Assembly (NCBI GenBank): GCA_021824635.1
Contig: JAKAKD010000001.1
Location: 2,351-66,350 of the forward strand
Origin: Bacteroidota bacterium
GTDB taxonomy: Bacteria; Bacteroidota; Ignavibacteria; Ignavibacteriales; Melioribacteraceae
Reading direction: 5' to 3'
Length of the DNA: 64,000 nt
The position numbers and the translations under genes are program-made. Below, piece by piece: positions 28,856-58,415 of this stretch. The notes beneath the pieces were generated by a model. It saw nothing but the letters and a program-made list of their open reading frames with translations, made no database searches and was not told the DNA's origin. Position 1 is the stretch's first letter. Each line of letters opens with the position of its first letter.

Positions 28856-28886
28856 AGCCGGTAGAACATAGTCTATCGGCTTTTTC
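28856..28886 (+). terminator. intrinsic terminator/attenuator between pilin-like gene B and the PilC-like gene
   Basis: AGCCGGTAGA / TCTATCGGCT 10-bp stem followed by TTTTTC. Confidence 0.7.
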
Positions 28887-28907
28887 ATTTAATAAAGAAA
28901 TATCACA

Positions 28908-30251: not shown

Positions 30252-30274
30252 ATAATATTAAGGAAGAATTAACA

Positions 30275-32062: not shown

Positions 32063-32132
32063 TTTTACAATGCTTATTATATTTAAATAAAGTATTTTAT
32101 ACTATGCTTTTCACCAATTAAGACGGTTACTC

Positions 32133-33359
32133 TTGATGATTGCAGATGCAAAACAAGTCCTCACGGCATTTACCACAAAAATTCCTACAACTATCTTAGG
32201 TCCGGAAAGAGTTCGATATATTATCGAGCATATTAACGAACTTCAAGTTGAACAAAAAATGCTTCTGCTTAATTTAATGAATGATATTTTGGGGATGATG
32301 ATTGAACGTCAGGCATCGGACATTGAAATCGGAGGATTCGGCGCTCAAAATTTTGTATGGATGAGAATATTTGGAAAAAAAGAACGCGTAAAAGATCTTC
32401 CTCAGTTTTCCGAAGATGAAGCATCAACACTAATAATTTCTTTGTTGAACAAGACCCAATGCGAGATGCTTTTATCGGAAAGGAATTTGGATTTTAGTTA
32501 TTCTTTCAAGTATGATAAAGTTCAAGCTGTAGTTCGTTTTCGTGCAGATGCTTATTTTGATCTTGATAGTGTGGCTTTAAATATGCGTTATATACAAGCC
32601 AGAATTCGTCCAATTGAATCTCTCGAATTTCACCCATTCGCAATTAAAATGATGAGCCACAATTACATAAAGTTTGGGCTATCATTAATAACTGGAATTA
32701 CCGGTTCTGGTAAATCCGCCACACTTGATGCAATTATTGATTATCACAACGATTCCGATCCTTGTCATATTGTAGTTATTGCTTCGCCTGTGGAGTTTGT
32801 CCACAAATCACGCGCGTCAATTATCAAGCATAGAGAAGTTGGAAGAGACGTAACGTCATTCAAAGATGGAGTAATTCAATCATTACGCCAGGATCCGGAC
32901 ATAATAGTAATTGGAGAAATGCGCGATCCGGAGACTATTCTATCGGCGCTGGAAGTTACAGATACCGGACACAAAGTCTTTTCAACACTTCACACATCAT
33001 CTGCCACCGAGTCCATTGATAGAATAGTTGCAGAAATACATCCAACTGAACAAGAACGTGTTAGGAATAGGCTGGCAGATGTCTTAATTTCGGTAGTTTC
33101 TCAGAAGCTTATACCTAGTTTAGACGGCAAACGTGTTCTTGCAAAAGAGGTTCTAATTGTTACTCCTTCTGTTAAAGCGGCAATTAAGAATAACAATACA
33201 AGTGAAATTTACATGATGATTAATCAAGGTGCTCCGCAAGGCATGATTACGATGGAACAAGATTTGCTACGTTTATATGCGGAAAGGAAGATTTCTAAAG
33301 AAAATGCTGTCTCTTATGCCAATAATAAAACAAGAATTTTACAATTGATGAAAGGGTAA
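32133..33359 (+). CDS. PilT/PilU-like hexameric ATPase (putative retraction motor) with N-terminal extension
   Basis: Walker A GITGSGKSAT, Walker B DPDIIVIGEMRD and His box TGHKVFSTLHTSSA. No tetracysteine. 408 aa versus about 345 for canonical PilT. Confidence 0.75.
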   Translation: MMIADAKQVLTAFTTKIPTTILGPERVRYIIEHINELQVEQKMLLLNLMNDILGMMIERQASDIEIGGFGAQNFVWMRIFGKKERVKDLPQFSEDEASTLIISLLNKTQCEMLLSERNLDFSYSFKYDKVQAVVRFRADAYFDLDSVALNMRYIQARIRPIESLEFHPFAIKMMSHNYIKFGLSLITGITGSGKSATLDAIIDYHNDSDPCHIVVIASPVEFVHKSRASIIKHREVGRDVTSFKDGVIQSLRQDPDIIVIGEMRDPETILSALEVTDTGHKVFSTLHTSSATESIDRIVAEIHPTEQERVRNRLADVLISVVSQKLIPSLDGKRVLAKEVLIVTPSVKAAIKNNNTSEIYMMINQGAPQGMITMEQDLLRLYAERKISKENAVSYANNKTRILQLMKG

Positions 33360-33360
33360 G

Positions 33361-34917
33361 TTGAAACAGGTTGTATGTCTATATAATGAAGGAACCGATG
33401 CAAAAGTTGCTGTTTTATCCAAAGATAATAACGGCGTCAAAGTTCACCGTGTATCGTCTTTAACGGTATCGCGTTCAATCATATCTTCTTCTAAAAAAGA
33501 AGTAATGGTTGAACTAGAAAATAATGTGATGGATACCGATTTGTCTTTCGATAACCTGGAATCAGTAAGTACTGTAGATTCTCAATCGCGCGAAAGAGCA
33601 GATGTTGAGTTGCTTGACGAAGCTTTACATGATTTGAAATTGCGTAATATGCTCTTCATTCCTGTAGTAACCGAACCGATAGTAAACTACCATTCATACG
33701 ATGGACCGCGCAGTATAAATAAGAAAAAATTAATTCAGTCGGTAATTAACGATCTTCAAGCAACCAAAGGAATTTCAGTAACTGAGGACTTGGTTGATGT
33801 TACCGAAATGAATGAAAAATCAATGCTTGGAGTTTTTCTTGAAGGAGATATGCCCAGTGTTGATTTGATAGGTCAACTTGCTAATTATAATAAAAGGCGT
33901 TACCTAAAAATTCCAACAATAAAAACCGCTGAACTTTCTCTTGCTTATTATGTCTCAAAATCAACAAAATTTTTCCCCGAGGATAACTCGCTTATTGTTT
34001 ACATTGGAAAAGAATACAGCAAACTAATTTTTCTTGAAGGACAAAAATTAAAACATATCGGTTCGCCTTTAGACATCGGTACAAAGAATCTTCATACATA
34101 CGATGTTTATTTTTCTAAGATTCTACTCGAAATGGAAAACGGCGGTATTCCGAAACTCGATAATATTATTCTTTGCGGCGAAGACCGATCAGAAAATTTA
34201 ATTCTTTCCTTCTATGGAACATTTCCGGAAGCGAATGTATCGGAACTAAAATTTGAGAATTTCGATTCAACAGGACTTAACGAAGAAGATCAGAAAAATC
34301 TTGCTCTATACGCAGTTCCAATTTCGGCCGGTATCGAATATTTTGATGAATTAGATAAGACACATGTTGGTGTAAATTTTCTTCCAAAATATATTCAAGA
34401 GAATCAAAAGTTTTTACAATTCGGATGGCATAGCTACGCATTAATGCCATTCTTATTCGGCGCGGCATTCTTCTTTACTTTCAAAACACTTTCCAATTTT
34501 AGAAATATAAAAGAATTGGATTTTGAAATTGAACGGCTTAATCAGCGACAAATACAAAATCAAGCACTTGTTCAACAAATTACTCCGCTCGAAACTCGAA
34601 TAAATAGTTTTGATGCAACACAGAAAATTATTGATGATGCCAGCGAAGGCGCGGGGTTGTGGAATAAGTCTCTTGGCAAGATTTCTGATTTTGCTGAAAC
34701 GAGAAGAAATTTCTGGGTTAGCAAAATCGAACCGATTTCTAAAGACGAAATTAAACTTACCGGATATTCATTATCCCGAAGTGTTCTGACTGAATTTGCC
34801 GGCATTAATAAAGCATCGCTTCTAAAAAATATCAATTTTGAACCGCTAAGAGAGAAGAGCGCTTTCTCATATACACTTAATTTAAGATTACAAAACGATA
34901 CTACGAAGACTAAATGA
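33361..34917 (+). CDS. PilM-PilN-like fusion protein (actin-like cytoplasmic domain, TM, coiled coil)
   Basis: A ~350-aa cytoplasmic N-terminal domain is followed by a single TM (YALMPFLFGAAFFFTF) and a coiled-coil/periplasmic segment (EIERLNQRQIQNQALVQQI). Position and architecture match the PilM plus PilN roles. Sequence motifs are weak. Confidence 0.5.
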   Translation: MKQVVCLYNEGTDAKVAVLSKDNNGVKVHRVSSLTVSRSIISSSKKEVMVELENNVMDTDLSFDNLESVSTVDSQSRERADVELLDEALHDLKLRNMLFIPVVTEPIVNYHSYDGPRSINKKKLIQSVINDLQATKGISVTEDLVDVTEMNEKSMLGVFLEGDMPSVDLIGQLANYNKRRYLKIPTIKTAELSLAYYVSKSTKFFPEDNSLIVYIGKEYSKLIFLEGQKLKHIGSPLDIGTKNLHTYDVYFSKILLEMENGGIPKLDNIILCGEDRSENLILSFYGTFPEANVSELKFENFDSTGLNEEDQKNLALYAVPISAGIEYFDELDKTHVGVNFLPKYIQENQKFLQFGWHSYALMPFLFGAAFFFTFKTLSNFRNIKELDFEIERLNQRQIQNQALVQQITPLETRINSFDATQKIIDDASEGAGLWNKSLGKISDFAETRRNFWVSKIEPISKDEIKLTGYSLSRSVLTEFAGINKASLLKNINFEPLREKSAFSYTLNLRLQNDTTKTK

Positions 34918-35801
34918 GCAGCAAAGTTAAAAATACAATCATCATTCTGGTAATCTTTATTATGATCGGGCTCAGTAGCGTTGCGTATAACTTTGTTTAT
35001 CAAAAAGCGAAAATAAGCGAGAAGCAGAAAAAAATTAAAGACCTAAAACTTTATCAGCTTGATACCGAATCATTGAATATGCAGCTTGCTTTATTAACAA
35101 AACGTGTTGCAGAACTGGATTCTGTTTTAGCAAACAGAAAGTACAACATTCCATTCAACGTGTCTCAAGCTTCTTTCTTCGATTTTGTAAATCAAGTCAG
35201 CTATGGTTTCTCGTCACATTCATATGTCAATATTGAGTTCAATGAAACAGAGACCGGAACGAATTTTAATATTTTTCACTACACATTAAACGGCATTGCA
35301 GAATTCAACGATCTGATAAAATTAATTTATGCTATTGAAGAGAGTAAGCAGTTAAAGAAAATCGAATCACTTGAATTGTCTAACAACGTTCAAGTTGATG
35401 CCGATGGCACTCCTCATTATTTGGTCAATTATAAATTTAAGGCCAAAATTTATTTCTCCTCGGATAATAGATTTTTTGTAAAGGATTTGAAAGAGAATTC
35501 TATTATTCCTAATCCGGCATACGATTTCTTCTATCCGTTAATCCGAAATGAAATACCGCCTAACAAAGATAAATTGCTGGATGTTCAATCCGCCCAGTTG
35601 TTAGCATTAATACCAGACGGAGCGTTCCTGGTTGATGCTAGCGGAAATACTTATCTATTGTGGGAAGGTGATCAGGTTTATCTGGGATATCTTACTAACA
35701 TAAATTACCAGAATACCGAAGTGAATTTTGTTCTGAATAAAGGCGGCATCATTGAGAATGTTACTTTGAAACTAGTAAAAGAAAAAAAACTGAGTAAATA
35801 A
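34914..35801 (+). CDS. PilO-like bitopic alignment-complex protein
   Basis: N-terminal TM (IIILVIFIMIGLSSVAY), a coiled coil (KISEKQKKIKDLK...LALLTKRVAELD) and a periplasmic domain. It overlaps the upstream gene by 4 nt. Confidence 0.45.
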   Translation: MSSKVKNTIIILVIFIMIGLSSVAYNFVYQKAKISEKQKKIKDLKLYQLDTESLNMQLALLTKRVAELDSVLANRKYNIPFNVSQASFFDFVNQVSYGFSSHSYVNIEFNETETGTNFNIFHYTLNGIAEFNDLIKLIYAIEESKQLKKIESLELSNNVQVDADGTPHYLVNYKFKAKIYFSSDNRFFVKDLKENSIIPNPAYDFFYPLIRNEIPPNKDKLLDVQSAQLLALIPDGAFLVDASGNTYLLWEGDQVYLGYLTNINYQNTEVNFVLNKGGIIENVTLKLVKEKKLSK

Positions 35802-35802
35802 A

Positions 35803-37056
35803 ATGAAAAAGCTAATTACAATTTTAATCCTATTCGTGTTAACGTTTACTGTTAACGCGCAGATTGATTTACAAGATAAATTAAAGGGTGCCGTAAACCC
35901 GGATGAACTGGTTTCACTTTCCGAAACAATTACATTTGATCAAGCTATTCAAGTGCTGAGTAAGGTAAGTGAAAAAATCACCGGCAAAAAAATTATCTCC
36001 ACTGTTAATCTTACAACTCCCATTGGAGTAGAAATTGACAAATGGCCATATAAAAAAGCACTCTTCGTTATTGTCCAATATAACAATCTAATAGTTGATG
36101 AAACCGAATCCACTGTAATTATTAAAAGAAAAGATGAATCCAAAACTAAATTAGCAAAAGAAACTTACGCTCCCATAGATGAACGAGAAGTTAAAATTTC
36201 TGCTGTGCTCTTCGAAGCGAATATTGATGATCTTCGTGAAAGAGGAATTAACTGGGAATTTCTGCTGTCCCAATCTGGTCTTTCAATCGGAACTAAAATA
36301 ATTACACTGCAAGAACAACAGCAGCAACAAGCATCCTCGGCGACAAGTACAACAATAATTCAAAAACCACCAACGTATGAAATTAATAACAGTACAAATT
36401 TTACAACGGGTAAATGGGATGGAACAGCTACCGGGTTATTCAGATTTTTAGAAACAAATAACTTAGGAGAAATTATTGCTCGTCCTATAATCACAGCAAG
36501 AGATGGTGTTGAAGGCAAAACACAAATTGGCAATGACTTTTCAATAAAAGAAAGAGATTTTGCAGGTAACCTTATAGATAAATTTTATCCGACCGGAACT
36601 ATCATTACCGCCACGCCGCACATCTTCAATGAACAGGGAATAACTTACGTTCTTCTTAAATTAAATATTGAACGAAGCAGTGTAGTTGCAAGAGACGCTC
36701 TTAGTACGAATGTAAGCAAAAATGTTGTAACCACAGACGTTCTTCTTCTAGACGGAGAAGAAACTGCTATCGGCGGCTTGTTTGAAAATCAAGAAATTTC
36801 AGTCCGCAGAGGAATTCCATTTCTAAAAGATCTTCCTTGGTGGGTATTCGGTATTCGCTATTTAACCGGCTACGATTCTCAAGAGACAGTCAGAAAAGAA
36901 GTTATTATGCTAATCAAAGCGGAATTGCTGCCGTCACTTAAAGACAGAATCGAAAAAATTAAAGAAGATTCCGCGTTGCGTGATATACGTCAGGAGAATT
37001 TTGATAAGATGGAGAAATACAAAAAGCAGTTTGAGAAAAAAGAAGACCCAAAATAA
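35803..37056 (+). CDS. short secretin (type II/III secretion system secretin family, PilQ-like)
   Basis: Signal peptide and a C-terminal secretin domain (ETAIGGLFENQEISVRRGIPFLKDLPWWVFGIRYLTG...VIMLIKAELL). It is only 417 aa and carries a QEQQQQQASSATS linker. Confidence 0.8.
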   Translation: MKKLITILILFVLTFTVNAQIDLQDKLKGAVNPDELVSLSETITFDQAIQVLSKVSEKITGKKIISTVNLTTPIGVEIDKWPYKKALFVIVQYNNLIVDETESTVIIKRKDESKTKLAKETYAPIDEREVKISAVLFEANIDDLRERGINWEFLLSQSGLSIGTKIITLQEQQQQQASSATSTTIIQKPPTYEINNSTNFTTGKWDGTATGLFRFLETNNLGEIIARPIITARDGVEGKTQIGNDFSIKERDFAGNLIDKFYPTGTIITATPHIFNEQGITYVLLKLNIERSSVVARDALSTNVSKNVVTTDVLLLDGEETAIGGLFENQEISVRRGIPFLKDLPWWVFGIRYLTGYDSQETVRKEVIMLIKAELLPSLKDRIEKIKEDSALRDIRQENFDKMEKYKKQFEKKEDPK

Positions 37057-37210: not shown

Positions 37211-40200
37211 ATGAAACTTAATTACCGTTTAATATTGATAACTCTTTTAATCGTTCTATTCATCTCGGTTATTTCAACTTTCATATTCTATTCGCTAGCC
37301 GGCAGACTATTAATGCAGCAGCAATCCAAGAATATTCTTAACTCTGCAAACGACTTTGCTTTTGTTTTTCAAAATGAACTTAGCAAAGTAGAAGAAGATT
37401 TTAAGAAAATTGCGCCGCGTATAAACAAATTCGACCAGATAAATTTAGATTCTACCGCAATAGATTTTTGTTTTACACTCGTAAACGACTCACTTATTAA
37501 TACGCACGAGTTCAAGATTAAAACCAAATCATATCTGAATATACGATCATCATCGTTCCGCCAGTTCTTCTCGGATAATCCAAATGTTGTTCTAAGATAT
37601 GCACAATTCCCAAGCGGTAGAACAGTTTATTACGGCAATCAAATATCATCGGATTTTCTAAACCGCATTTCGCAAAAAATTCGGGCGGAAGTTGCGCTTG
37701 TAATAAATGATTCCCCGGTTGAAATTTCCAATCCAGATAAAAATCAGATTCACCTTCTGGCGGTTATAAATGCCGTACGCGAATTAAAATTTAAAAACAG
37801 CTTCGATCTTTACACTAACGAATATGAAAACGCAGATTTTTATGCCGCGCTCTTTTTGCCAAAATCTTTTCTTACGCCCGGCGCTAAATTAAATTTTATT
37901 GTCTTCAATGTTTTTAAGGAAGGCGTAGAATTTCGCGACACTTTACGGATTGTAATGGTTATTATTGTAATTGCCGGAAGCGCAATTACATTTCTTATAG
38001 TTTTAGGATTCACCATCAAATTGAGAAAACAAATTTCACTACTTAGTGAAGCTGCCGAGATAACAGGAAAAGGAAATCTAGACCACAGGGTAAAAATAAT
38101 TACGAAAGATGAAGTCGGCAGACTAGGCGAGACTTTTAATAAAATGCTCGATGAACTTGTGCTGAATAAGAAGAATGAAAAAGAATATTCGGAATTTATT
38201 ACTCTCATCAATCAAAATCCGACAATGAAAGAAATATCGGATGCGGCACTAGCAAAAATTATCAAATCCACGGGCTTAACTTTTGGTGTGTTGTATATTG
38301 TCGAAAATAAAGCGCTTAGGTTAATTTCATCTTTTGGCGTTAGTCAAAATATTGTTGAGATGACACAAAATGCCGATCTATACAGTAATGCCATTGATAA
38401 AAAAGAGAAAGTTGAATTTCATTTTCACGATAACTTCCCCGAAATAAAAACCGGCATAGCTACAATCAAAATAAAATATTTAACCATTTATCCGATTGTT
38501 TATAATAAGGAAACAATTGCAGTGCTTGAACTTGCTTCGGAATCGGCTCCTCGTGAAGAAGTTCTGAATTACATATCTATTATTCATGACCAGCTTGCCG
38601 TTGGAATTACTAATGCAAAATCGTTTGAACAGCTCGAAAATTTTGTAAACGAATTGAAAAAACTAAACGAAGAATATCAGAAACAAAATCAGCATATAAT
38701 TGAGCAGAACAGTCAGTTAAAAGAACTTCACAGAGAATTGAAAGAGAAAGCGGGCGAATTAGAAAAACAAAGAGCCAAGGCGGTTGAACTGACTAGAGTG
38801 AAGTCGGATTTTCTTGCAAGTATGTCGCATGAACTCCGCACACCGCTGATATCAATTCTTGGCTTAACAGAATTGCTGATTAAAGATACGCTCGTTACAT
38901 CAAGAACAAAGGACCGCCTAAATATCGTTCACCGCAACGGCGAAAAACTTCTTGGGCTTATTAATAATATTCTCGAGTTCTCAAAATTTGAATCGGGCAA
39001 GATTGAAATTAAAAAAGAAAGCTTCTTGCTAAGCGATCTTCTCAAAGAATTAAATCCAAATATCAAACATCTAACATCAGAGAAGAACCTTAAATATATT
39101 TTGGAAATTGAAAACAACTCAAATGCATTAATAAATTCCGATAAGGGCAAATTGGAACAAATACTTCTCAATTTACTTGTCAATGCAGTTAAGTTTACGG
39201 AAAATGGTTCGATTAAATTATCAGTAAATATTTTGAGCGGGAAAGATATTGAGTTTATTGTTACAGACACCGGAATAGGAATTACCGAAGAACAACAAGA
39301 AGTAATATTTGGCGAGTTCCGTCAAGTTGACAGCAGCACTGCAAGAAAATATGGCGGCGCGGGATTGGGACTGGCTATTTGTAAAAAGTATATTGAATTA
39401 TTAGGTGGCGTTCTACAACTAAAAAGTGAAATCGGGAATGGGTCGAGTTTTTATTTCACATTATCAGATTCTGTGCTCGATGTTTTTGATAATCCTGATC
39501 ATAAATTTTTAACCCTTTCGGAAGATCTTAATGACGACGAAGATGCAGAATTAATATTAATCATTAATGCCAATACGGATTCTCTAAGACTTATCGGCGA
39601 TTACCTCGCATCGTATAACTATAGAATTATAACTACAGCCAGCAGCACAGACGGAATCCGCTTAGCGAAAGAAAAACTCCCGGCAGCAATTGTTCTGGAT
39701 CCTCTAATTCACGATCAAAATGTTTGGAATATCATTCTTGAACTAAAAAACAATTTAACAACGCGGAATATTCCGATCATTATTACAATGATTATTGAGG
39801 AAGAGAAAGTAGGTTGGGAGCCGGAAATTTTTGATTTTATCTCTTCCCAAGTTGAGCGTGATGATTTTGAGAATCTGATTAAAGAAGTTGAGTTACATTT
39901 TGATAATCAAATTCGGAAAATTGTAATTCTAGAGAAAGATGATACCGGTTATAAAAAACTTGTAAATATTTTCGGTGAGAAGTATGAATTCCTATTGTTG
40001 AATTCAGTAGACGCGGTTAAACAAAAGATTAAAGAAGAGAATCCGCAGCTGATTTTAATTGATATGGAATCGTTCAATATAGAAGCTCTGCAGGTAAGTT
40101 TTGATTTGTCCCGGCAAAGATTCACTAAAAATATTCCAATCGTTTTTAAACTTCCTGGTGAGTTTGATGACAAACTAAGTAAAGCGCTCAATTCAAAATT

Positions 40201-40753
40201 GAGAGAAATAACATTGAAAATAAAAGCTCACCCTTTGGATGTTCTGAAAATATTGCGTGACCGCTTAAAAATTGACGATGATACAACAAACAAAAAAATT
40301 AATTTAATTGAAGAACCGTTCCAGAAGAATGATCCGGAGCAGTACAGCAAGAGTATTGAATACAACGCGAAAACCAAACCGACTATTCTTATTGTTGATG
40401 ATGATAATGATGCGCTTTTTACCATCGGAGAATTTGTAAAAGAATTAAACTGCGATACAATTTTTGCCCACAATGGAATGGAGTGTTTGTTAACACTTAA
40501 CCATGTTCAGCCGGATCTAATATTTCTTGATATAATGATGCCGCAGATGGACGGTTTTGAAACTATCAAGCGGATCCGCGGTGATGAGAAATTCGCCAAA
40601 ATTCCGGTTATTGCTTTAACTGCATATGCAATGCTTGATAATAAAAATATTATTGAAAAAAATGGTTTTAATGATCTGGTGACAAAACCGATTAATTCTA
40701 AAATCCTTGCCGCCAAGATGAGTAAATTCCTTTTATCTAAAGTTGATAAATAA
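37211..40753 (+). CDS. large hybrid sensor histidine kinase (2 TM periplasmic sensor, HAMP, GAF-like, HisKA, HATPase_c, two degenerate REC-like domains, one canonical REC)
   Basis: HAMP (ITGKGNLDHRV...DEVGRLGETFNKM), H-box SHELRTPL, G-box DTGIGI...GGAGLGLAICK and C-terminal REC (ILIVDDDND...DLIFLDIMMPQMDG...K). The two central receiver-like modules lack the acidic pocket. Confidence 0.85.
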   Translation: MKLNYRLILITLLIVLFISVISTFIFYSLAGRLLMQQQSKNILNSANDFAFVFQNELSKVEEDFKKIAPRINKFDQINLDSTAIDFCFTLVNDSLINTHEFKIKTKSYLNIRSSSFRQFFSDNPNVVLRYAQFPSGRTVYYGNQISSDFLNRISQKIRAEVALVINDSPVEISNPDKNQIHLLAVINAVRELKFKNSFDLYTNEYENADFYAALFLPKSFLTPGAKLNFIVFNVFKEGVEFRDTLRIVMVIIVIAGSAITFLIVLGFTIKLRKQISLLSEAAEITGKGNLDHRVKIITKDEVGRLGETFNKMLDELVLNKKNEKEYSEFITLINQNPTMKEISDAALAKIIKSTGLTFGVLYIVENKALRLISSFGVSQNIVEMTQNADLYSNAIDKKEKVEFHFHDNFPEIKTGIATIKIKYLTIYPIVYNKETIAVLELASESAPREEVLNYISIIHDQLAVGITNAKSFEQLENFVNELKKLNEEYQKQNQHIIEQNSQLKELHRELKEKAGELEKQRAKAVELTRVKSDFLASMSHELRTPLISILGLTELLIKDTLVTSRTKDRLNIVHRNGEKLLGLINNILEFSKFESGKIEIKKESFLLSDLLKELNPNIKHLTSEKNLKYILEIENNSNALINSDKGKLEQILLNLLVNAVKFTENGSIKLSVNILSGKDIEFIVTDTGIGITEEQQEVIFGEFRQVDSSTARKYGGAGLGLAICKKYIELLGGVLQLKSEIGNGSSFYFTLSDSVLDVFDNPDHKFLTLSEDLNDDEDAELILIINANTDSLRLIGDYLASYNYRIITTASSTDGIRLAKEKLPAAIVLDPLIHDQNVWNIILELKNNLTTRNIPIIITMIIEEEKVGWEPEIFDFISSQVERDDFENLIKEVELHFDNQIRKIVILEKDDTGYKKLVNIFGEKYEFLLLNSVDAVKQKIKEENPQLILIDMESFNIEALQVSFDLSRQRFTKNIPIVFKLPGEFDDKLSKALNSKLREITLKIKAHPLDVLKILRDRLKIDDDTTNKKINLIEEPFQKNDPEQYSKSIEYNAKTKPTILIVDDDNDALFTIGEFVKELNCDTIFAHNGMECLLTLNHVQPDLIFLDIMMPQMDGFETIKRIRGDEKFAKIPVIALTAYAMLDNKNIIEKNGFNDLVTKPINSKILAAKMSKFLLSKVDK

Positions 40754-40756
40754 AAA

Positions 40757-41437
40757 ATGAAAAAAATATTAATAATAGATGATTACCCGGATAATGTTTT
40801 TCTTCTTCAAGACAGACTTGAAAAGGAAGGATTTGAAGTGATAAAGGCATATCACGGTGAAACTGGAATCCAAAAAGCGATTGAAGAAAAACCTGATCTG
40901 ATCCTTTTAGATATCATGATGCCCGATATTTCAGGTTTTGAGGTTTGCAAAATATTGACAGCAAATCAAGAGACAAAGTTAATTCCGATAATTCTTCTTA
41001 CCGCGTTGACCGAAGCCGATAGTCTTAAACAGGGTTTGTCGGCAGGCGCATTCGATTATATTAAAAAACCTTTTAACAGAACAGAACTTATTGCAAGAAT
41101 TAATTCCGCTCTGCGTTTTAGTGAAACAAATAAGATACTTCTTGAAGTAGAAAAGATAAAGACCTACGCCGCAACTGTTGTTACCGCTAATCACGAAATA
41201 AAACAGCCGCTCACTTTAATTAATTTATCTACAGCGGCAATCCGCCGGGAAATATCCAAACCGGACTTCTCCAATGAAGTTATATTGAAGCGAGTTGAAT
41301 TTATTGAAAACGCCGCAAAAGATATTATCAACGTGTTGGATAAACTCGGTTCGATTAAAAAACCTGTAATTACTCCTTACGTAAATGATCTCAACATAAT
41401 AGATTTAAAAGCTGTGGAAGGAAAGTTACCCAATTAA
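40757..41437 (+). CDS. response-regulator receiver fused to a HisKA-like (DHp) domain, without an ATPase domain
   Basis: Canonical REC (ILIIDDYPDN, DLILLDIMMPDISG, KP) followed by an H-box-like TANHEIKQPLTLINL. The ORF ends about 75 aa later with no N/G boxes. Confidence 0.75.
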   Translation: MKKILIIDDYPDNVFLLQDRLEKEGFEVIKAYHGETGIQKAIEEKPDLILLDIMMPDISGFEVCKILTANQETKLIPIILLTALTEADSLKQGLSAGAFDYIKKPFNRTELIARINSALRFSETNKILLEVEKIKTYAATVVTANHEIKQPLTLINLSTAAIRREISKPDFSNEVILKRVEFIENAAKDIINVLDKLGSIKKPVITPYVNDLNIIDLKAVEGKLPN

Positions 41438-42457
41438 TTCGCGTACCAGCGAAAGTAACTCTTCAAAGTTGTATGGCTTGTTTATAATTTTATTCACATT
41501 AACTTTATCAATCTTGCCGCTATCTGTAGGCGAACCCGAAGCGAGAATAATTGGAATATTGTAATTCGCAGATGAAATTTCTTGAATGCATTCAAGTCCG
41601 TCCATTTCTGGCATTTTTCTGTCAATAATCAATAAGTCGGGCATTCTAACTTTTAACGTTTCCAAAACTTCAATTCCGTTAGAAGAAGTAAGAACAGTGT
41701 AATTATATGATTGGAGAAGTTCCGCAAGAAGTTCTCTCAGTATATCTTCATCTTCAGCAATCAATATTGTTTTCCCGCTGTCGTTAGAGTGCTGTGTTGC
41801 CGTGTGTGCAGCTTCTAGAGTGAGTATAAACTCAGTGCCTTTCTCAGGTTCACTTACAACAGCAATTGTTCCGCCGTAATTCTCAATAATCTTTTTTACA
41901 ATTGATAAACCGATCCCGGACGCGGTCTTTTTAGCTTTTGTGGAAAAATCTTCATCAAAAACAAACGGAAGAATCTCTTTATCAATTCCTTTCCCGCTGT
42001 CTTTAATTCGAAGTTCAACTCTCGTCCCGTCATCTATATTTGATGTGGTAAAAGAAATAACTCCCGTTGTATCAATTGATTCGATAGAATTTGTCAGCAA
42101 ATTGAGAATAACCCGGTAGTAGTCAGAATATTTTCCGAGTACAAGTTTTAGATCCGGTTCGAGAGTCAGCTTAAAATCAATTTTTCCTTTTTGCTGAATC
42201 AAAAATGAACGGACAATATCGCTTGTAACTGAATTTAAATTTATTCTTCTAAGATTATTGTTTTTGGATTTATCGCCAAAATTATCGCCTATCATTTCTG
42301 ACGCAAGGTAAGTTCCGGCTTCTATACTGTTGAGGATTGGTAGAATATCTGATGAACTTGAGACTTTTCTTTTTAGAAGATCGATACTATTTAGAATGCG
42401 TGTGAAAATATTATTTAAATCGTGTGCAAGATGTTTTGTGGATGAATCGGTGCTCAT
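41426..42457 (-). CDS. soluble hybrid histidine kinase (HisKA, HATPase_c, REC) without a sensor domain
   Basis: H-box LAHDLNNIFTRIL at the extreme N-terminus, G-boxes DSGKGI and ASGIGLSIVKKIIENYGG, and C-terminal REC (ILIAEDEDIL, DLLIIDRKMPEMDG). No TM. Confidence 0.85.
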   Translation of the reverse strand: MSTDSSTKHLAHDLNNIFTRILNSIDLLKRKVSSSSDILPILNSIEAGTYLASEMIGDNFGDKSKNNNLRRINLNSVTSDIVRSFLIQQKGKIDFKLTLEPDLKLVLGKYSDYYRVILNLLTNSIESIDTTGVISFTTSNIDDGTRVELRIKDSGKGIDKEILPFVFDEDFSTKAKKTASGIGLSIVKKIIENYGGTIAVVSEPEKGTEFILTLEAAHTATQHSNDSGKTILIAEDEDILRELLAELLQSYNYTVLTSSNGIEVLETLKVRMPDLLIIDRKMPEMDGLECIQEISSANYNIPIILASGSPTDSGKIDKVNVNKIINKPYNFEELLSLVRELIG

Positions 42458-42458
42458 T

Positions 42459-43802
42459 CTATTTTAAATTATACTTTAGAATTTTAGAATAGAGAGTCTT
42501 TTGGCTTATATCGAGAGCTCGTGCGGTGTTTTCGCGGTTCCAGTCATTTTGATCGAGCGCTAATTTAATGTGAATCCGTTCAACCTCTTCCATAGATTTG
42601 ATTGTGCCGTCATCTTTGGTGAAGTTTGAAAAATCGAAATCGGTTGAGGGGATATTTAAATCTTTCGGCAAAATGGTTTCAGCTTCAGAAAAAATTATTG
42701 CGCGTTCAATCATGTGTTCAAGTTCTCTAACATTGCCGGGAAAGTTATACCGCTGCAATTCAGTTTTCGCTTCCGCAGAAAGTTTTTTAACGGCTCTAAC
42801 CGGAGATTTCTTCTGTAAAAAATATTCTGAAAGCAAAAGCACATCGCCATTGCGTTCACGCAGCGGGGGAATTGTTAATGTAATTACATTCAATCGGAAC
42901 AGTAGATCGCGGCGGAAATTTTTTCTCTCAGCTTCTTCCATCAGATTTTTATTTGTAGCGCCAATGACTCTAACGGATGATGTAAGATTTGTAACTCCGC
43001 CAACTCTTCTGAACTCTCCATTCTCAAGAAATCGTAACAGCTTCGGTTGAAGAGCCAAACTCAGTTCGCCGATCTCATCAAGAAATAAAGAACCTCCATT
43101 GGCAATTTCAACCAGACCTTGCTTTGAATTTTTCGCATCTGTGAAAGCGCCTTTTTCATATCCAAAAAGCTCACTTTCAATTAATTGATCTGGAAGCGAC
43201 GCACAATTAATTGCAACAAAAGGCTTATCTGCACGGTTAGAATTTTTATGAATAAATTCAGCGAATAATTCTTTACCGGTTCCGGTTTCTCCTTCAAGCA
43301 AAATATTCGATTCCGATTTAGCGGCACGTTCCGCTAATTTCAAAATGCTTTTAATCTTTTCGCTCTCGCCGATAATTGTATTTGGAGGAGTCTGGCTGAT
43401 TTTCGAGGTCAGAATTTTATTTTTTATTAGAAGATCTTTGTAGCCAAGTGCACGCTCTATTGTAACGCAAAGTTGACCAAATTCATATGGCTTTGTAATA
43501 AAATCATAAGCGCCTTGTTTGATACAATCTATTGCCGTGCGGATGTCAGACTTTGCGGTAAGAACAATTACTTGTAAAGATGGATAGTTGTCTTTTACGT
43601 GGGCTAAAACCTTTTCGCCGTGAACTTCTCGCATTTCTAGATCGAGGAGTAGAACATCATAATACCTTTTTTTCAAATTTTCGATGGCATCTTTGCCGTC
43701 ATAAACAACATCAACAGAATACCCTTCATTTACCAGTTCTTCTTTGAGGAGGTAACAGAGGGTTTCATCGTCATCTGCTATAAGTATTCTAGAATCTTTC
43801 AT
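42459..43802 (-). CDS. sigma54-dependent response regulator (NtrC/PilR family)
   Basis: REC ([17 protein letters not shown]), AAA+ Walker [15 protein letters not shown]-type loop EKGAFTDA and C-terminal Fis-type HTH ([18 protein letters not shown]). Confidence 0.92.
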
Positions 43803-43933: not shown

Positions 43934-44005
43934 GGGCGCGTAGCTCAGTGGTAGAGCAACACCCTTTTAAGGTGAAGGTCGGTGGTTCGAGCCCACCCGT
44001 GCTCA
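43934..44005 (+). tRNA. tRNA-Lys (anticodon UUU)
   Basis: Hand-folded cloverleaf. Acceptor GGGCGCG/CGTGCTC, D arm GCTC-AGTGGTA-GAGC, anticodon loop CTTTTAA, T arm GGTGG-TTCGAGC-CCACC, discriminator A. CCA is not encoded. Confidence 0.9.
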
Positions 44006-44006
44006 C

Positions 44007-44039
44007 AAAAAACCCAATATGAATAATATTGGGTTTTTC
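44007..44039. terminator. bidirectional intrinsic terminator (tRNA-Lys on + strand, yebC on - strand)
   Basis: The hairpin AAAAACCCAATAT-GAATA-ATATTGGGTTTTT is flanked by A and T runs. Confidence 0.8.
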
Positions 44040-44070
44040 ATTTTTAAAGAAAATCAAACAGACAGGGTCT

Positions 44071-44781
44071 TTACTGCATATTATGATATACCGATTGAAC
44101 ATCATCATCTTCTTCAAGAGCTTCAATTAATTCTTGCACTTCCTTTTTTTGTTCTTCTGATAATTCTTTGTAATTAACCGGAAGATATTGAAGCTCGGTT
44201 GCTTTGATCTCTATATTTCTTTCTTCAAGCGCTTTCTGCATCGAACCATATTCCTGAAACGGCGCATAGATATAAATGAACTCATCATCATTGGAAAAAT
44301 CATCTAGTCCGGAGTCAATTAATTCCAGCTCTAAATTATCCAAATCGGTTCCGGCGGATTTTACGGCTTTGAATAATCCTTTTCTTTCAAACATGAAAGC
44401 AATAGAACCGGTAGTGCCTAACGAACCTTCGTGTTTCTTAAAGATATGACGGACGTTCGCGACAGTCCTTGTCGGATTGTCGGTTGCGCATTCAACTATG
44501 ACGCCAATTCCGTGCGGAGCGTATCCTTCATAAATAATTTCCACATATCCGGATGTGTCTTTTGAAGAAGCTCTTTTAATTGCGGCTTCAACTTTATCTT
44601 TTGGCATGTTAACGCTTTTGGCGTTCTGGATTGCAATCCTAAGTTTAGAATTTGATTTTTGATCTGGTCCGCCTGCTTTTACAGCAATTTCAATCTCTTT
44701 TCTAACTCTGTTGAAAGCTTTTGACATTCTTGCGTAACGCGCAAACATAACATGCTTTCTTGTCTCAAAAATTCTTCCCAT
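44071..44781 (-). CDS. yebC: YebC/PmpR-family DNA-binding protein
   Basis: 236 aa. The N-terminus MGRIFETRKHVMFARYARMSKAF matches the Bacteroidota-style YebC variant. Conserved AIQNAKSVNMPKD..EAAIKRA and YEGYAPHGIGVIVE blocks are present. Confidence 0.88.
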   Translation of the reverse strand: MGRIFETRKHVMFARYARMSKAFNRVRKEIEIAVKAGGPDQKSNSKLRIAIQNAKSVNMPKDKVEAAIKRASSKDTSGYVEIIYEGYAPHGIGVIVECATDNPTRTVANVRHIFKKHEGSLGTTGSIAFMFERKGLFKAVKSAGTDLDNLELELIDSGLDDFSNDDEFIYIYAPFQEYGSMQKALEERNIEIKATELQYLPVNYKELSEEQKKEVQELIEALEEDDDVQSVYHNMQ

Positions 44782-44925
44782 TTTTTACTCAGCCTTGGTT
44801 AAATAATTTTTTTTTGATGGACAAATTTACAAATTCATTTTCAATTTTTTGGGGTGAAAATAGCTAAGCACTCTAGTAAAAATTACTTTTTGGGGTACAA
44901 AATCATAAAAATTATAATTCTCTCA

Positions 44926-44954
44926 TTGACAAAACCGGATTTCTGTTATACATT
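44926..44954 (+). promoter_or_regulatory. candidate sigma70-type promoter for the trp leader (TTGACA-17-TACATT)
   Basis: TTGACA at 44926-44931, a 17-nt spacer and TACATT at 44949-44954. An alternative TTGGGG-17-TATAAT lies at 44890-44918. Confidence 0.45.
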
Positions 44955-44964
44955 TGCAACCAAG

Positions 44965-45033
44965 ATGACAAACGAAAAGAAGATAGCAAATAAAAATTGG
45001 TGGTGGTGGAGAAATATTTCTCTGCTATCCTAA
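44965..45033 (+). CDS. Trp-rich leader peptide MTNEKKIANKNWWWWRNISLLS
   Basis: A 22-codon ORF (too short for the ORF track) has four consecutive TGG codons at 44998-45009. It is followed by alternative hairpins and lies 120 nt upstream of trpB2. Confidence 0.75.
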   Translation: MTNEKKIANKNWWWWRNISLLS

Positions 45034-45056
45034 TGCTTTAAATAGATTTTAACAAC

Positions 45057-45127
45057 AAGCCGTGGATGGTAGAACCGTTCACGGCTTTTTTGTATCCAGC
45101 CGTGAACTTCCATTCAGCGGCTTTTTT
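45057..45127 (+). terminator. tandem intrinsic terminators of the trp attenuator (T1 45057-45091, T2 45098-45127)
   Basis: T1 is a 13-bp stem AAGCCGTGGATGG/CCGTTCACGGCTT followed by six T. T2 is AGCCGTGAA/TTCAGCGGCT (one bulge) followed by TTTTTTATTTT. The 3' arm of T1 can alternatively pair with the 5' arm of T2 (45078-45086 with 45098-45106). Confidence 0.75.
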
Positions 45128-45152
45128 ATTTTATACATAATAGGAGGTTCAC

Positions 45153-46499
45153 ATGTCAAGCAACAAAATAGTTTTTCTCGATCAGTCTCAAATGCCAACT
45201 CACTACTATAATATTCTTGCGGATTTACCCAAACCGATGGATCCGCCGTTACATCCCGGTACAAAGCAGCCAATAGGTCCGCAAGACTTATCTGCAATTT
45301 TTCCAATGGAGTTGATCAAACAAGAAGTCTCACAAGAAAGATTCATAGAAATTCCGGATGAAGTACGAGATCTTTATAAATTGAGTCGCCCAACTCCGCT
45401 AATCCGCGCAAGCAATCTTGAAAAAGCTTTGGGCACACCGGCAAAAATTTATTTTAAGTATGAAGGCGCAAATCCAACCGGAAGTCATAAAACCAATACA
45501 TCGTATGCGCAGGCATATTACAACAAGCAGGCCGGAATTAAAAAGCTTGTAACGGAAACCGGAGCTGGACAGTGGGGCAGTGCGCTTGCTATGGCTTGCA
45601 AGCATTTCGATCTGGAGTGTGAGGTGTTTATGGTGAAGGTGAGCTACAATCAGAAACCGTACCGTAAGACTTTTATGAAATTGTTCGGCGCTGAAGTCCA
45701 TGCTAGTCCATCAATATATACCAACGCGGGAAGAAATATTCTAAACAACGATCCCGATTCTCCAGGTTCACTTGGAATTGCAATCAGCGAGGCAATTGAA
45801 GTTGCAGTACAGCGTGAAGATACAAATTACAGTTTAGGAAGTGTGCTCAATCATGTACTGCTTCATCAAACAATCATTGGAGAGGAAGCACGTATTCAGA
45901 TGGAAATGGCCGGCGCTTATCCTGATATTGTAATTGGATGTCTTGGCGGCGGAAGTAATTTTGCGGGAATTGCATTCCCATTTTTACGAGATAAACTTAC
46001 CGGCGTAAAGAAAGATTTAAAAGTAATTGCTGTTGAACCGGCATCGTGTCCTACTCTTACAGAAGGGAAGTATGAATATGATTTTGGAGATGAAGCGGGA
46101 ATGACTCCTTTAATGAAAATGTACACACTCGGTCATGATTTCATACCGCCAAAGATTCACGCAGGCGGTTTGCGCTATCATGGCGCTGCACCGTCAGTTT
46201 CATTGCTTTATAACACCGGTGCAATCAGCGCAAGCGCTTACGAGCAATTAGATGTATTCCAAGCCGCGCAGTTCTTCGCTCAAACCGAGGGAATTATTCC
46301 TGCGCCGGAAAGTTCTCATGCAATCAAAGAGACGATTGTGCAGGCTCTACGGTGCAATGAAACAGGAGAGGCAAAGACAATTTTATTTAATCTTTCCGGC
46401 AACGGATTTTTGGATTTAGGTTCTTATGAAATGTTTTTAGAAAATCAGCTTGAGAATTACTCCGGCGAAACAAAATATGCGGATATTGCAGTTGGTTGA
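45153..46499 (+). CDS. trpB: TrpB2-type tryptophan synthase beta-subunit-like PLP enzyme
   Basis: PLP-lysine block [13 protein letters not shown] and glycine loop [11 protein letters not shown]. The 448-aa length with an N-terminal extension is typical of TrpB2. AGGAGG lies 5 nt upstream of the ATG. Confidence 0.88.
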
Positions 46500-46509
46500 T
46501 TTCACTTAA

Positions 46510-46537
46510 GCAGAGACGGAAGATATTCCGTCTCTGC
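46510..46537 (+). terminator. stem-loop after trpB2
   Basis: Perfect 12-bp stem GCAGAGACGGAA-GATA-TTCCGTCTCTGC. The downstream T-run is weak. Confidence 0.55.
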
Positions 46538-46596: not shown

Positions 46597-47250
46597 ATGA
46601 ATTCGGTTCTGCAAATATTTCTAAGTAGCCTTCTGCTTAGTTTGGTTCACGCTTCAATACCAAGCCATTGGTTGCCCTTAATTGCTATTGGAAAAGCGGA
46701 GAAGTGGACAGACAAGGAAACAGTAACTGTAACTGCAATTACAGGAGCGTCTCACACAATAAGTACTGTAATTATAGGAATCATAGTCGGGCTTGTCGGC
46801 TATAAACTATCCGAGTCATATCATTATATTACTCATATTGTAGCACCGATAATTTTAATTCTTCTTGGGTTAATTTATTTATTCTTGGAATACCGACACA
46901 GTTTAATAAGAACCGCGCATCAACATCACCACATACATGTTGATGAAATAATAGAAAAACGGAAGAGTAAGAGATCAATTGTATTTACTCTGAGTGTAGC
47001 AATGTTCTTCTCGCCATGTTTGGAAATAGAAGTATATTATTTCACGGCAAGCCGATTGGGCTGGCTGGGAATTGGAATTGTTTCGATCGTTTATTTTTTT
47101 GTTACTGTTCTCGGAATGATGTTTCTGGTTCACTTTGCATCAAAGGGAGTTCGTAAACTCAACTGGCATTTTCTGGAACATCATGATAAACTGATAAGCG
47201 GAATTGTGCTTATACTTGTTGGCTTGCTTGCTTTTTTTGTGGAATATTAA
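46597..47250 (+). CDS. membrane protein with a His-rich loop; possible divalent-metal (Ni/Co-type) transporter
   Basis: Six hydrophobic segments and a central loop RHSLIRTAHQHHHIHVDE. An N-terminal HASIPSHW motif is present. Family assignment is tentative. Confidence 0.4.
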   Translation: MNSVLQIFLSSLLLSLVHASIPSHWLPLIAIGKAEKWTDKETVTVTAITGASHTISTVIIGIIVGLVGYKLSESYHYITHIVAPIILILLGLIYLFLEYRHSLIRTAHQHHHIHVDEIIEKRKSKRSIVFTLSVAMFFSPCLEIEVYYFTASRLGWLGIGIVSIVYFFVTVLGMMFLVHFASKGVRKLNWHFLEHHDKLISGIVLILVGLLAFFVEY

Positions 47251-56792: not shown

Positions 56793-58283
56793 TTAGAAAA
56801 GACATTCTCTAATTTGGCTTACCAGTAAATCATGCTCTACCGGTTTAGAAATTATTTTGTCAACGCCAAGACGTAAATATTTTTTTGAAATTTCATCGTT
56901 TAGTTTTGCTGAGACAACGATTATAGGGACTGTCCTGTTCGCTTCTTTTTTTTGGATAGCTTCAACTAATTGAATGCCGTTCATAAGCGGCATATCGTGG
57001 TCGGTAATAATTATTGTCGGAAGTAAATCTCTGTACATTCCAATTGCTTCGTAACCGTTAGCAGCAAATTTAACTTCAAAATTAGGGAGAGCCTGTTCAA
57101 TAATTTTTTTGTAGAGTGTTCTAACACTCTCTTCGTCTTCAACTAATAGAATAACGTTCTTAGCTTCGGGAACAGTACAGTGAAACTCGCTACCTTCGCC
57201 AACCTGAGAATAGAACCAAACTTGCCCGCCGTGTTTTTCAATAATTTCTTTTACTAATGTTAGTCCAAGTCCGCTTCCTTTTTCGCCATTGGTTCCAACA
57301 AGAGAAAATTTTTGATCAATCTTGAAAAGTTTTGTCTGATTCTCTTCGGAAATTCCAAGTCCTTCATCGCGTACAACAATTTCAATCATTCCTTCTTTAA
57401 ATCTGCTTGCGGAAAGATGAACTTCTTTTCCTTCCGGAGTAAATTTAATAGCATTTGTAGCTAAATTAACAATGGCTTGGCTTATCAAACGTTCGTCTGC
57501 ATTTATATGAAGATCGGAAGGGATTTCAATTTTAACATCAATATTTTTTCTAACAGCATCTCCGGTAAGCGGAGTAACTGCGTTTGAAACAACTGTCCTA
57601 ACATTTAATCGCACCGGTTCAACTTTTATTCTGCCGGTTTGTAATCGGGACCAGTCCAGAAGACAATTAATCAGGTTGAGCTGCGATTTTGATGCGTCAT
57701 AAATGTATCGGATATATTCATTACGCTCATCTTCCGAAACGTCTTGTTCGTTGAGAAGAATTTCTGAAAAGCCGAGAAGAGTAGTAAAAGGTGCGCGCAG
57801 ATCGTGTGAAACAATAGAAATAAATTTATCTTTCGATACATTCAGTTCTTTAAGAGAGTCGCACGATTTCTGAAGTTCGGTTTCGTTCTTCTTAATTTCT
57901 GAAATATCTAAGACTGTACTTTTTCTCTGAATAATATCTCTGCCGTTTTGCTCACGGATCACACTCAAAAATTCCTTTACCCAAACCGGTTTGCCTGATT
58001 TTGAATTAATTCTGTAAGTGAGTTCAAGCGAATCTTTATTGGGTTCGTTTTCAAATTCTATGAGACTATTTTTAACTGCGCTTAAATCTTCTTCAAAAAT
58101 AATTGAGTAGTGATTTTCCGGCAGACTATTTATTTCGGCGGGGGTATAACCGGTAATTTTTTCAACGGAATCTGATACAAAATTTTCTGTAGAACCGTTA
58201 TAATATTTCATCGAAAAGAAAATATTACTAAACCGGCTGTTGAATTCTTTTAAGACATCAAAATTAATTTTATCTTTCTCCAT
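56793..58283 (-). CDS. hybrid sensor histidine kinase (PAS, HisKA, HATPase_c, REC)
   Basis: H-box SHDLRAPFTTLLGF, N-box NLATNAIKFT, G-box DEGLGI...GSGLGLTLVKEI and C-terminal REC (ILLVEDEES, IIITDHDMPLMNG). Confidence 0.88.
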   Translation of the reverse strand: MEKDKINFDVLKEFNSRFSNIFFSMKYYNGSTENFVSDSVEKITGYTPAEINSLPENHYSIIFEEDLSAVKNSLIEFENEPNKDSLELTYRINSKSGKPVWVKEFLSVIREQNGRDIIQRKSTVLDISEIKKNETELQKSCDSLKELNVSKDKFISIVSHDLRAPFTTLLGFSEILLNEQDVSEDERNEYIRYIYDASKSQLNLINCLLDWSRLQTGRIKVEPVRLNVRTVVSNAVTPLTGDAVRKNIDVKIEIPSDLHINADERLISQAIVNLATNAIKFTPEGKEVHLSASRFKEGMIEIVVRDEGLGISEENQTKLFKIDQKFSLVGTNGEKGSGLGLTLVKEIIEKHGGQVWFYSQVGEGSEFHCTVPEAKNVILLVEDEESVRTLYKKIIEQALPNFEVKFAANGYEAIGMYRDLLPTIIITDHDMPLMNGIQLVEAIQKKEANRTVPIIVVSAKLNDEISKKYLRLGVDKIISKPVEHDLLVSQIRECLF

Positions 58284-58415
58284 ACCATTCGATATTAGAT
58301 GAAAACTAAATCAAATATAATAAAATAATTTTTAATACAGCACACGAGACTATTTAAGTGTGAACGAGAAACTTATTTAACCATTACAGTGTTACGCTGA
58401 TATTGAAAAAAATAA

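Follow-up and report, generated by a model that had tools for sequence, protein, structure and literature searches.

The locus considered here raises the question of what a short reading frame with four consecutive tryptophan (Trp) codons does in front of trpB2, a gene that stands apart from other trp genes. It lies in a 64 kb stretch of DNA from an Ignavibacteriales (Melioribacter-like) bacterium; this stretch as a whole is the DNA under study and is referred to as the window, and all coordinates are positions within it. A preliminary description of the region had proposed a ribosome-mediated Trp attenuator with two terminators in series. The analysis described below leads us to regard it as probable that trpB2 is controlled, as a monocistronic gene, by a ribosome-mediated leader-peptide attenuator of this kind, to which a relay appears to have been added. 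The leader has the features of this class of attenuators: a short upstream open reading frame (uORF) containing Trp codons, an antiterminator and a terminator that exclude each other, an intrinsic terminator located before the gene, and UGG codons that pair with a strand downstream of them (element 2 below).

The regulated gene, trpB2 (45153-46499, plus strand), encodes a TrpB-like pyridoxal phosphate (PLP) enzyme of 448 amino acids, as judged from profile scores and homologues. Its product reaches 735 bits with NF009057, the model for TrpB-like PLP enzymes (cutoff 366), and 671 bits with TIGR01415; the canonical trpB model TIGR00263 gives 169 bits (cutoff 392). The gene is TrpB2-type, as previously described, and not a canonical trpB, since it scores above its own curated cutoff and outscores the canonical model. 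No other trp gene was found among the 44 of the 48 window open reading frames (ORFs) of at least 150 amino acids that were scanned by profile, in agreement with the earlier statement that trpB2 is the only one. The attenuator region is located between trpB2 and the divergent upstream gene yebC (44071-44781, minus strand), and its hairpins therefore cannot be the terminators of another, upstream gene.

Promoter and leader reading frame

A consensus scan recovers the promoter of the preliminary description, TTGACA-17-TACATT at 44926-44954. The element (44926-44956, plus strand) consists of a −35 box TTGACA (44926-44931), a spacer of 17 nucleotides (nt), and a −10 box TACATT extended to TACATTTG (44949-44956). 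The leader ORF (44965-45033, plus strand) can be read directly from the sequence as reported: 22 codons encoding MTNEKKIANKNWWWWRNISLLS, with the ATG at 44965, a TAA stop codon at 45031-45033, and four consecutive TGG codons at 44998-45009; homologous uORFs are found in relatives. The 12-mer TGGTGGTGGTGG occurs a single time in the 64 kb, both strands considered, and in none of 100 dinucleotide-preserving shuffles.

Nearly all relatives retain a TTG-type −35 box and a TAnnTT(TG) box, and in these, as in the window, only 4-8 nt separate the −10 box from the leader start codon. In relatives, the first Trp codon usually follows the start codon at a distance of 10-11 codons, despite variable residues. 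No Shine-Dalgarno (SD) sequence precedes the leader ATG, and none fits in the gap of 4-8 nt; trpB2, unlike the leader ORF, has a strong SD, GGAGG. From these features, the leader ORF is probably leaderless or almost leaderless. That hardly any 5' untranslated region is present, as already pointed out in the preliminary description, is a conserved feature and not a problem for the model.

We note a variant arrangement in one Ignavibacteria metagenome-assembled genome (MAG; L010:3760-3840). Here the leader ORF starts about 10 nt past an apparent tRNA 3' end (..GGTTCGATCCCACC..), with no promoter box between the two, and the attenuator may depend on read-through transcription from the tRNA.

Alternative pairings in the leader transcript

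The transcript contains four strands that can pair in alternative ways, all encoded on the plus strand. Element 1 (44996-45013) comprises the four UGG codons (44998-45009) with their flanks and is the 5' strand of hairpin 1:2, as found in the RNAfold minimum free energy (MFE) structure and the RNAalifold consensus. Element 2 (45018-45034), identified by alignment and folding, spans the final leader codons together with the stop codon. It provides the 3' strand of hairpin 1:2, and its segment 45021-45030 serves as the 5' strand of the antiterminator as well. Element 3 (45057-45073), defined by pairing in the alignment, contains the 5' arm of terminator T1 (45057-45070) and the 3' strand of the antiterminator (45064-45073). 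Element 4 (45074-45091), supported by alignment, energy and terminator scan, consists of the T1 3' arm (45074-45087) and the U-run (45086-45091), and is in addition complementary to a further strand, element 5.

Hairpin 1:2 pairs 45002-45013 with 45018-45029 and is extended by 44996-45000 with 45030-45034 (−18.2 kcal/mol). It had been missed in the preliminary description, and its presence completes the classical 1:2 / 2:3 / 3:4 scheme. The antiterminator 2:3 is formed by 10 base pairs (bp) between 45021-45030 and 45064-45073 (−12.7 kcal/mol, or −16.3 kcal/mol with a small inner hairpin). Terminator T1 (3:4) is formed by 14 bp between 45057-45070 and 45074-45087 (−21.7 kcal/mol), followed by a run of six T, and is likewise reported by the terminator scan. 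Antiterminator and T1 both make use of 45064-45070 and are mutually exclusive. The region 44960-45155 folds with −56.2 kcal/mol, compared with −37.7 ± 4.1 kcal/mol for shuffled sequences (z = −4.5, RNAfold).

The helices were evaluated on an alignment of 34 sequences (alignment A1), using slid pairings as controls. Hairpin 1:2 is 86% paired (controls 46-61%), with six pairs in which both sides have changed; the corresponding values are 90% for the antiterminator (controls 29-53%) and 95% for T1 (controls 29-58%), the latter with three such pairs. At alignment columns 41/95 of the antiterminator, the pair is C-G in 13 sequences, U-A in 12 and U-G in 8, with one mismatch. The RNAalifold consensus independently consists of 1:2 and T1.

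The switch itself was assessed from folds of the nascent transcript, as equilibrium folding of the full leader with a masked ribosome keeps preferring T1. If no ribosome is present, nascent RNA forms 1:2. A 30-nt footprint placed on any of the four Trp codons makes the antiterminator the MFE structure of the RNA made so far, and a footprint at the stop codon covers element 2, the masking of 45021-45030 that had been predicted. Taken together, the core four-strand attenuator is computationally well supported by its elements, by their conservation, and by covariation in 1:2, 2:3 and 3:4.

Conservation of the leader among trpB2 relatives

The upstream regions of 80 genome loci encoding TrpB2 relatives were compared. 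A homologous mini-ORF together with antiterminator and T1 precedes TrpB2 in 24 of the 26 closest genome loci with usable upstream sequence, which was the conservation check set beforehand. The mini-ORF of relatives has the consensus ..N(N/K)NWWW(W)R..SL(L/P)S, followed by a stop; a uORF with three to four UGG codons is present in each of the 34 sequences analysed, and T1 is nearly invariant in the 24 genome loci (AAGCCGTGGATGGTAGAACCGTTCACGGCTTTTTT). Conservation of all three parts ahead of orthologous trpB2 genes, along with the compensatory changes described above, argues for the ribosome-mediated Trp attenuator of a stand-alone trpB2 that was originally suggested.

The two remaining loci, L016 and the Chloroflexota-labelled L025, are without the leader. 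L016 (L016:3670-4000) is an Ignavibacteria MAG whose TrpB2 has 73% identity. No Trp-codon leader or attenuator is found within 330 nt upstream of this gene, a region that holds only the terminator of the preceding gene; some members of the phylum have therefore lost the element or replaced it.

Metagenomes were scanned with the pattern TGGTGGTGG-N35-65-CCGTGGATRGT, which matched at least 120 stretches. Among the matches listed, 11 have a terminator after the pattern (the filter applied), and all 11 precede TrpB2. A twelfth match, L131, is the same contig as L012; the filter passed over its GGCTTGTTT tail. The other stretches among the matches listed are treated as chance matches, without individual inspection, and the matches listed include no copy of the attenuator family before any gene other than trpB2. 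A covariance model (R1) built from the 34-sequence alignment scores the window leader at 109 bits; it detects no further copy in the window, and no match at TrpB2 loci from other phyla. According to this search, the attenuator family is restricted to the trpB2 genes of Ignavibacteriota.

Two weaker matches to model R1 in the window were rejected. A candidate second element at 28806-28886 (20 bits) is merely a terminator. A reverse-strand candidate at 45053-45131 (minus strand, 33.5 bits) reflects a repeat property of T1 and the second terminator T2, as the two stems are near-palindromic and similar to each other.

Mini-ORFs with a WWW motif followed by a terminator also precede trpB2 in Calditrichota (L027, ~3690-3830; L055, ~3840-3940), KSB1 (L050, ~470-600) and Weeksellaceae (L075, ~3830-3930). 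The nucleotide sequences of these four leaders are unrelated to the Ignavibacteriota family and are missed by R1; their equilibrium folds with a masked ribosome prefer the terminator, as is the case for the window leader. The association of a Trp leader with trpB2 is therefore recurrent and not a single inherited accident, and the distant leaders suggest repeated invention, or very fast turnover, of Trp leaders before trpB2.

A proposed second lock downstream of T1

Beyond T1 the leader contains further complementary strands on the plus strand. Element 5 (AGCCGUGAACUUCC, 45098-45111) has three alternative partners, namely element 4, element 6, and the ribosome-binding site (RBS) of trpB2, according to energies, shuffles and the alignment. 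Element 6 (45113-45132), identified by energy and by a survey of T2 in relatives, consists of the T2 3' arm (45113-45122) and the U-run TTTTTTATTTT (45122-45132). The RBS (45143-45155), assigned from the RNAfold MFE pairing and conservation, comprises the SD GGAGG (45143-45147), the spacer TTCAC (45148-45152) and the ATG (45153-45155).

The 4:5 helix pairs 45077-45086 with 45098-45107 (10 bp, −15.9 kcal/mol). T2 (5:6) pairs 45098-45106 with 45113-45122 (9 bp and one bulge, −9.8 kcal/mol) and is followed by TTTTTTATTTT. With these two helices, all four pairings listed in the preliminary description, which also included the antiterminator and T1, are found to exist at the computed energies. The third partner of element 5 was found in the present follow-up: GUGAACUUCC (45102-45111) is complementary to GGAGGUUCAC (45143-45152), directly before the ATG (−13.5 kcal/mol), and an unconstrained RNAfold MFE structure pairs precisely these two segments. 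The equilibrium fold of the full leader consists of 1:2, 3:4 and 5:SD (−53.4 kcal/mol) and hides the SD; the on-state, 2:3 and 4:5, has −28.6 kcal/mol.

The 4:5 complementarity exceeds that of shuffled sequences with z-scores of −3 to −7 in about 30 of the 34 sequences. A T2 hairpin with U-run is found in 20 of 34 relatives. Of the two-terminator relay proposed earlier, the capture of element 5 by the T1 3' arm thus has its counterpart in most relatives, whereas T2 itself is not universal. Anti-SD pairing of −12 kcal/mol or lower, with z-scores of about −2 to −4, occurs in approximately 19 of the 34 sequences. Within the Melioribacter-like subset, 4:5 is 93% and 5:RBS 83% paired, and in 16 of this clade's 17 sequences the stability of 4:5 equals or exceeds that of 5:RBS. 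The segment GAGGTTCAC at the RBS is conserved in the clade that keeps GTGAACC.

Reading the pairing and T2 results together, we assigned the loci to four classes with respect to this second lock. Class A has T2 as well as an anti-SD strand (the window, L001, L002, L010, L126, L187 and L195). Class B has the anti-SD strand only (L003, L004, L008, L019, L184, L094, L098, L011, L012 and L014), class C has neither (L006 and L007), and class D has T2 only, with an RBS that is not complementary (L015, L018, L020-L028, L141, L148 and L182). Four loci are placed outside the classes: L017 has T2 and a different anti-SD, L005 has neither clearly, L009 has weak versions of both, and L183 duplicates L004.

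Proposed mechanism

In the mechanism that we infer, ribosome stalling, folding kinetics, a relay through T2 and the anti-SD strand, leaderless initiation and a response to tryptophan would act together as follows. Transcription would start at the leader AUG or a few bases before it, and the 22-codon leader would be translated by a ribosome. When charged tRNA-Trp is scarce, the ribosome would stall on the four UGG codons of element 1; element 2 would be left free, 2:3 would form, and T1 would be blocked. When tryptophan is plentiful, the ribosome would reach the stop codon and mask element 2, T1 would form, and transcription would end. With no ribosome on the leader, 1:2 would form, and T1 would still form.

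In the read-through state the free T1 3' arm (element 4) would capture element 5, and T2 would be prevented. The same 4:5 capture would keep element 5 off the SD and start region of trpB2, leaving the SD open. In the off state, a polymerase that has moved past T1 would leave element 5 free, with either termination at T2 or sequestration of the RBS as the outcome. The net effect would be a tight shut-off in the presence of tryptophan, and induction by starvation of an enzyme that produces tryptophan from indole and serine or phosphoserine. As the equilibrium fold hides the SD, completed mRNAs may need continued stalling to stay translatable.

A more far-reaching version of this mechanism is advanced here only tentatively, as a possibility that falls somewhat short of an even chance. 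In this version, a single ribosome stalled on UGG would flip a chain of six strands, from 1:2 / 3:4 / 5:6 or 5:SD to 2:3 / 4:5, and would thereby set two serial terminators as well as access to the trpB2 RBS, such that the finished mRNA would remain Trp-responsive in its translation. The second lock would have been swapped repeatedly within Ignavibacteriota (terminator, anti-SD, both, or neither), the leader would be leaderless, and the system would provide the first regulatory evidence, from a free-living bacterial phylum, that a stand-alone TrpB2 serves as a Trp-starvation enzyme, for example in indole salvage.

Weighing of the interpretations

Several points weigh against the mechanism as drawn. 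Two of them concern the core. The transcription start site is predicted from the consensus promoter alone. Furthermore, in equilibrium folds T1 is thermodynamically favoured in every case once element 4 has been made, the case of a stalled ribosome included. Antitermination must therefore be kinetic, a step that we infer. Antitermination in the attenuator of Escherichia coli is likewise kinetic.

The remaining points concern the extension. The helices 4:5 and 5:RBS are without compensatory changes in the alignment, where they display conservation and wobble changes only; the anticipated covariation is thus present in 1:2, 2:3 and 3:4 and absent from these two helices. Common descent or duplication of a terminator stem could explain part of the 4:5 and 5:RBS complementarity. 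In the window, T2 is modest, with a bulged stem at −9.8 kcal/mol, and the class C loci L006 and L007 have neither T2 nor anti-SD; the relay is therefore dispensable.

Together with the observation that the T2 stems repeat the T1 stem (GCCGUG/CACGGC), as duplication would give, the missing compensatory changes and the two class C loci speak for a plain classical attenuator. According to this explanation only 1:2, 2:3 and 3:4 matter, T2 is a back-up or duplicated terminator, and the ability of element 5 to pair with the T1 3' arm and the RBS follows from shared stem sequence and has no regulatory function. We consider this unlikely, as four observations are at odds with it. First, class B loci have no T2 3' arm but keep element 5 (−13 to −20 kcal/mol with element 4) and the matching GGTTCAC at the RBS; this includes L003, L004, L008, L019 and L184, which have no T2, yet retain both element 5 and a complementary RBS. 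Element 5 in these loci is therefore not explained as a terminator arm. Second, the TTCAC spacer between SD and ATG is conserved, whereas the neighbouring spacer varies freely. Third, the divergent RBS sequences of L014 and L017 are matched by divergent anti-SD segments of their own, such that sequestration of the SD is kept by different sequences. Fourth, L018 and L022 exhibit a joint change from G-C to A-U in the T1 and T2 arms.

The attenuator with an added relay thus remains our preferred interpretation, with different strength for its parts. From its complementarity to the SD and start region of trpB2, element 5 is likely to make a translational lock part of the device. The relay through T2 and the anti-SD strand is plausible and coherent rather than proven, and its function is deduced from the sequences.

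Search for known RNA families

An Rfam scan of the whole window at gathering score returns only a tRNA-Lys, and the same scan of 12 TrpB2 loci, Bacteroidota included, returns only tRNAs. In a permissive scan of 44000-46000 (E <= 10), the trpB motif RF04312 ranks first with 31.2 bits (E = 0.07; gathering score 59); further sub-threshold matches to COG2827, snoRNA and miRNA families were dismissed as chance. Trp_leader (RF00513), Bacteroid-trp (RF01692) and T-box have no match at E <= 10 in this region. TRAP-type (G/U)AG triplets spaced by 2-3 nt do not occur in a run of five or more in 44926-45155.

The trpB motif is found in Firmicutes and Fusobacteria, mostly before ABC transporters and sometimes before trpB; Narunsky et al. 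(2024) put it forward as a candidate riboswitch, without excluding classical attenuation (PMC11109978). It shares with the window leader a layout of two hairpins, the second of which is a terminator, with the right shoulder of P1 able to act as anti-terminator (PMC11109978). No Trp-codon uORF is reported for that family, whereas the window leader has one. This layout, the sub-threshold match and the pairing of the UGG run with element 2 are what could be brought forward for an RNA-only or protein-binding attenuator, that is, a riboswitch-like element, a distant relative of RF04312, or a TRAP-like system, in which the UGG run is structural and not decoded. Such an attenuator is highly improbable: the reading frame is conserved in the 34 sequences, with a start about 10-11 codons before the UGG run and directly past the promoter box, and with an in-frame stop in or next to element 2 despite variable N-terminal residues; other phyla, too, have uORFs with WWW before trpB2, in RNA of unrelated sequence; TRAP-type repeats are absent, as is any T-box or riboswitch family at E <= 10; and the score for the trpB motif is far under the family threshold of 59 bits. 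We conclude that the leader belongs to no curated RNA family, and that its resemblance to RF04312 is one of layout only.

Genomic context

G+C content is approximately 36%. TrpB2 has its closest homologues in Ignavibacteriales, Melioribacter and Stygiobacter, with an Ignavibacteriales MAG (91%) and a Melioribacter MAG (88%) at the top. A 10-bp hairpin (GCAGAGACGG..CCGTCTCTGC, 46510-46537, plus strand), read from the sequence 11 nt past the trpB2 stop codon, probably marks the end of the monocistronic unit. The genes located 3' of trpB2 vary among relatives and in many cases are convergently oriented, which marks trpB2 as a stand-alone unit.

Further downstream, a gene at 46597-47250 encodes a membrane protein of 217 amino acids with a His-rich loop (HQHHHIH) and a weak match to DsbD_2. 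It is found in the same position in L001 and not in other relatives, and is probably a metal- or thiol-related transporter unrelated to trpB2. On the other side, beyond yebC, a tRNA-Lys(UUU) gene (43934-44006) is directly followed by a 13-bp A/U-rich hairpin (44008-44038) that the scan called terminator-like; the hairpin lies back to back with the 3' end of yebC. Signalling genes are dense at 37211-43802 and 56793-63584; besides a hybrid histidine kinase of 1180 amino acids, they include PAS kinases, several response regulators and two sigma-54 activators. Genes for type II/IV secretion or a pilus are clustered at ~28900-37000.

Functional implications

The function of trpB2 genes outside of trp operons is debated (PMC1854888). 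TrpB2 enzymes are described as having high affinity for indole and as using O-phospho-L-serine as a substrate (as cited in PMC11917138). Proposed roles of a stand-alone TrpB2 comprise indole salvage, O-phosphoserine-dependent Trp synthesis, and other functions (PMC1854888, PMC11917138). If the interpretation given here holds, a Trp-codon attenuator before trpB2 of Ignavibacteriota, along with unrelated WWW leaders in three other lineages, would indicate that the enzyme is wanted when tryptophan is short. This would constitute a regulatory argument for the role of TrpB2 that is independent of enzymology, and would extend leader-peptide attenuation to Ignavibacteriota. The relay would represent a compact design that lowers basal expression, with the T1 3' arm doubling as anti-anti-SD and anti-T2 strand. 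We note that the family, with about 35 sequences, is detected by no Rfam model and can nonetheless be modelled (R1), and that its natural variants (T2 only, anti-SD only, both, neither) form a ready comparative series.

Comparison with known systems

Literature searches returned no paper on a Trp-codon leader before a TrpB2-type gene or on trp regulation in Ignavibacteria, and nothing usable on tryptophan biosynthesis in Ignavibacterium or Melioribacter. In Corynebacterium diphtheriae an attenuator precedes an operon named trpB2A (PMC1262725); the name there appears to denote a second trpB copy adjoining trpA.

The E. coli trp attenuator (trpL; RF00513), whose scheme is summarised in PMC4007540 and PMC1183508, shares with the window leader consecutive Trp codons in a short uORF, the mutually exclusive helices 1:2, 2:3 and 3:4, an intrinsic terminator 3:4 that is more stable than the antiterminator, and a leader stop codon placed such that a terminating ribosome masks element 2. 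The switching logic is the same in both. Detectable homology in sequence or structure is absent (RF00513, E <= 10). The window leader has four Trp codons instead of two and precedes one stand-alone trpB2 instead of a trpEDCBA operon; its uORF is without an SD and probably leaderless, and T1 is followed by elements 5 and 6 and by the anti-SD pairing.

The Bacteroid-trp motif (RF01692), a candidate Trp leader-peptide attenuator, belongs to the same superphylum (the Fibrobacteres-Chlorobi-Bacteroidetes, or FCB, group) but is detected neither in the window leader (E <= 10) nor, at gathering score, in the 12 TrpB2 loci. The motif is listed as a cis-regulatory RNA of Bacteroidetes (PMC2864571).

Leaderless regulatory uORFs are also known from other bacteria, namely leader peptides in Deinococcus deserti (PMC4007540) and polycysteine uORFs in mycobacteria (bioRxiv 10.1101/834739), for both of which the starts were mapped experimentally. 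These have no SD, and the uORF starts at or within 1-2 bases of the transcript 5' end, as is proposed here; in the window, the start is deduced from the conserved box 4-8 nt before the AUG.

A combination of transcriptional and translational control has parallels of two kinds, against which the proposed device differs in its sensor and in its relay. For trpE of Bacillus subtilis, sensing by TRAP sets a terminator as well as an SD-sequestering hairpin, and in the translational attenuation of erm and cat genes a ribosome stalled on the leader frees a downstream SD. The sensor proposed here would be a ribosome stalled by lack of Trp-tRNA, and not a Trp-binding protein or an antibiotic, and the SD lock would be relayed via the 3' arm of the terminator itself. 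In comparison with these systems, the core follows a textbook mechanism, here with an unusual target and in a new lineage, and the parts that would be new are the leaderless uORF and the T2/anti-SD relay via the T1 3' arm. The finding is a refinement of what is known and leaves the understanding of attenuation as it is.

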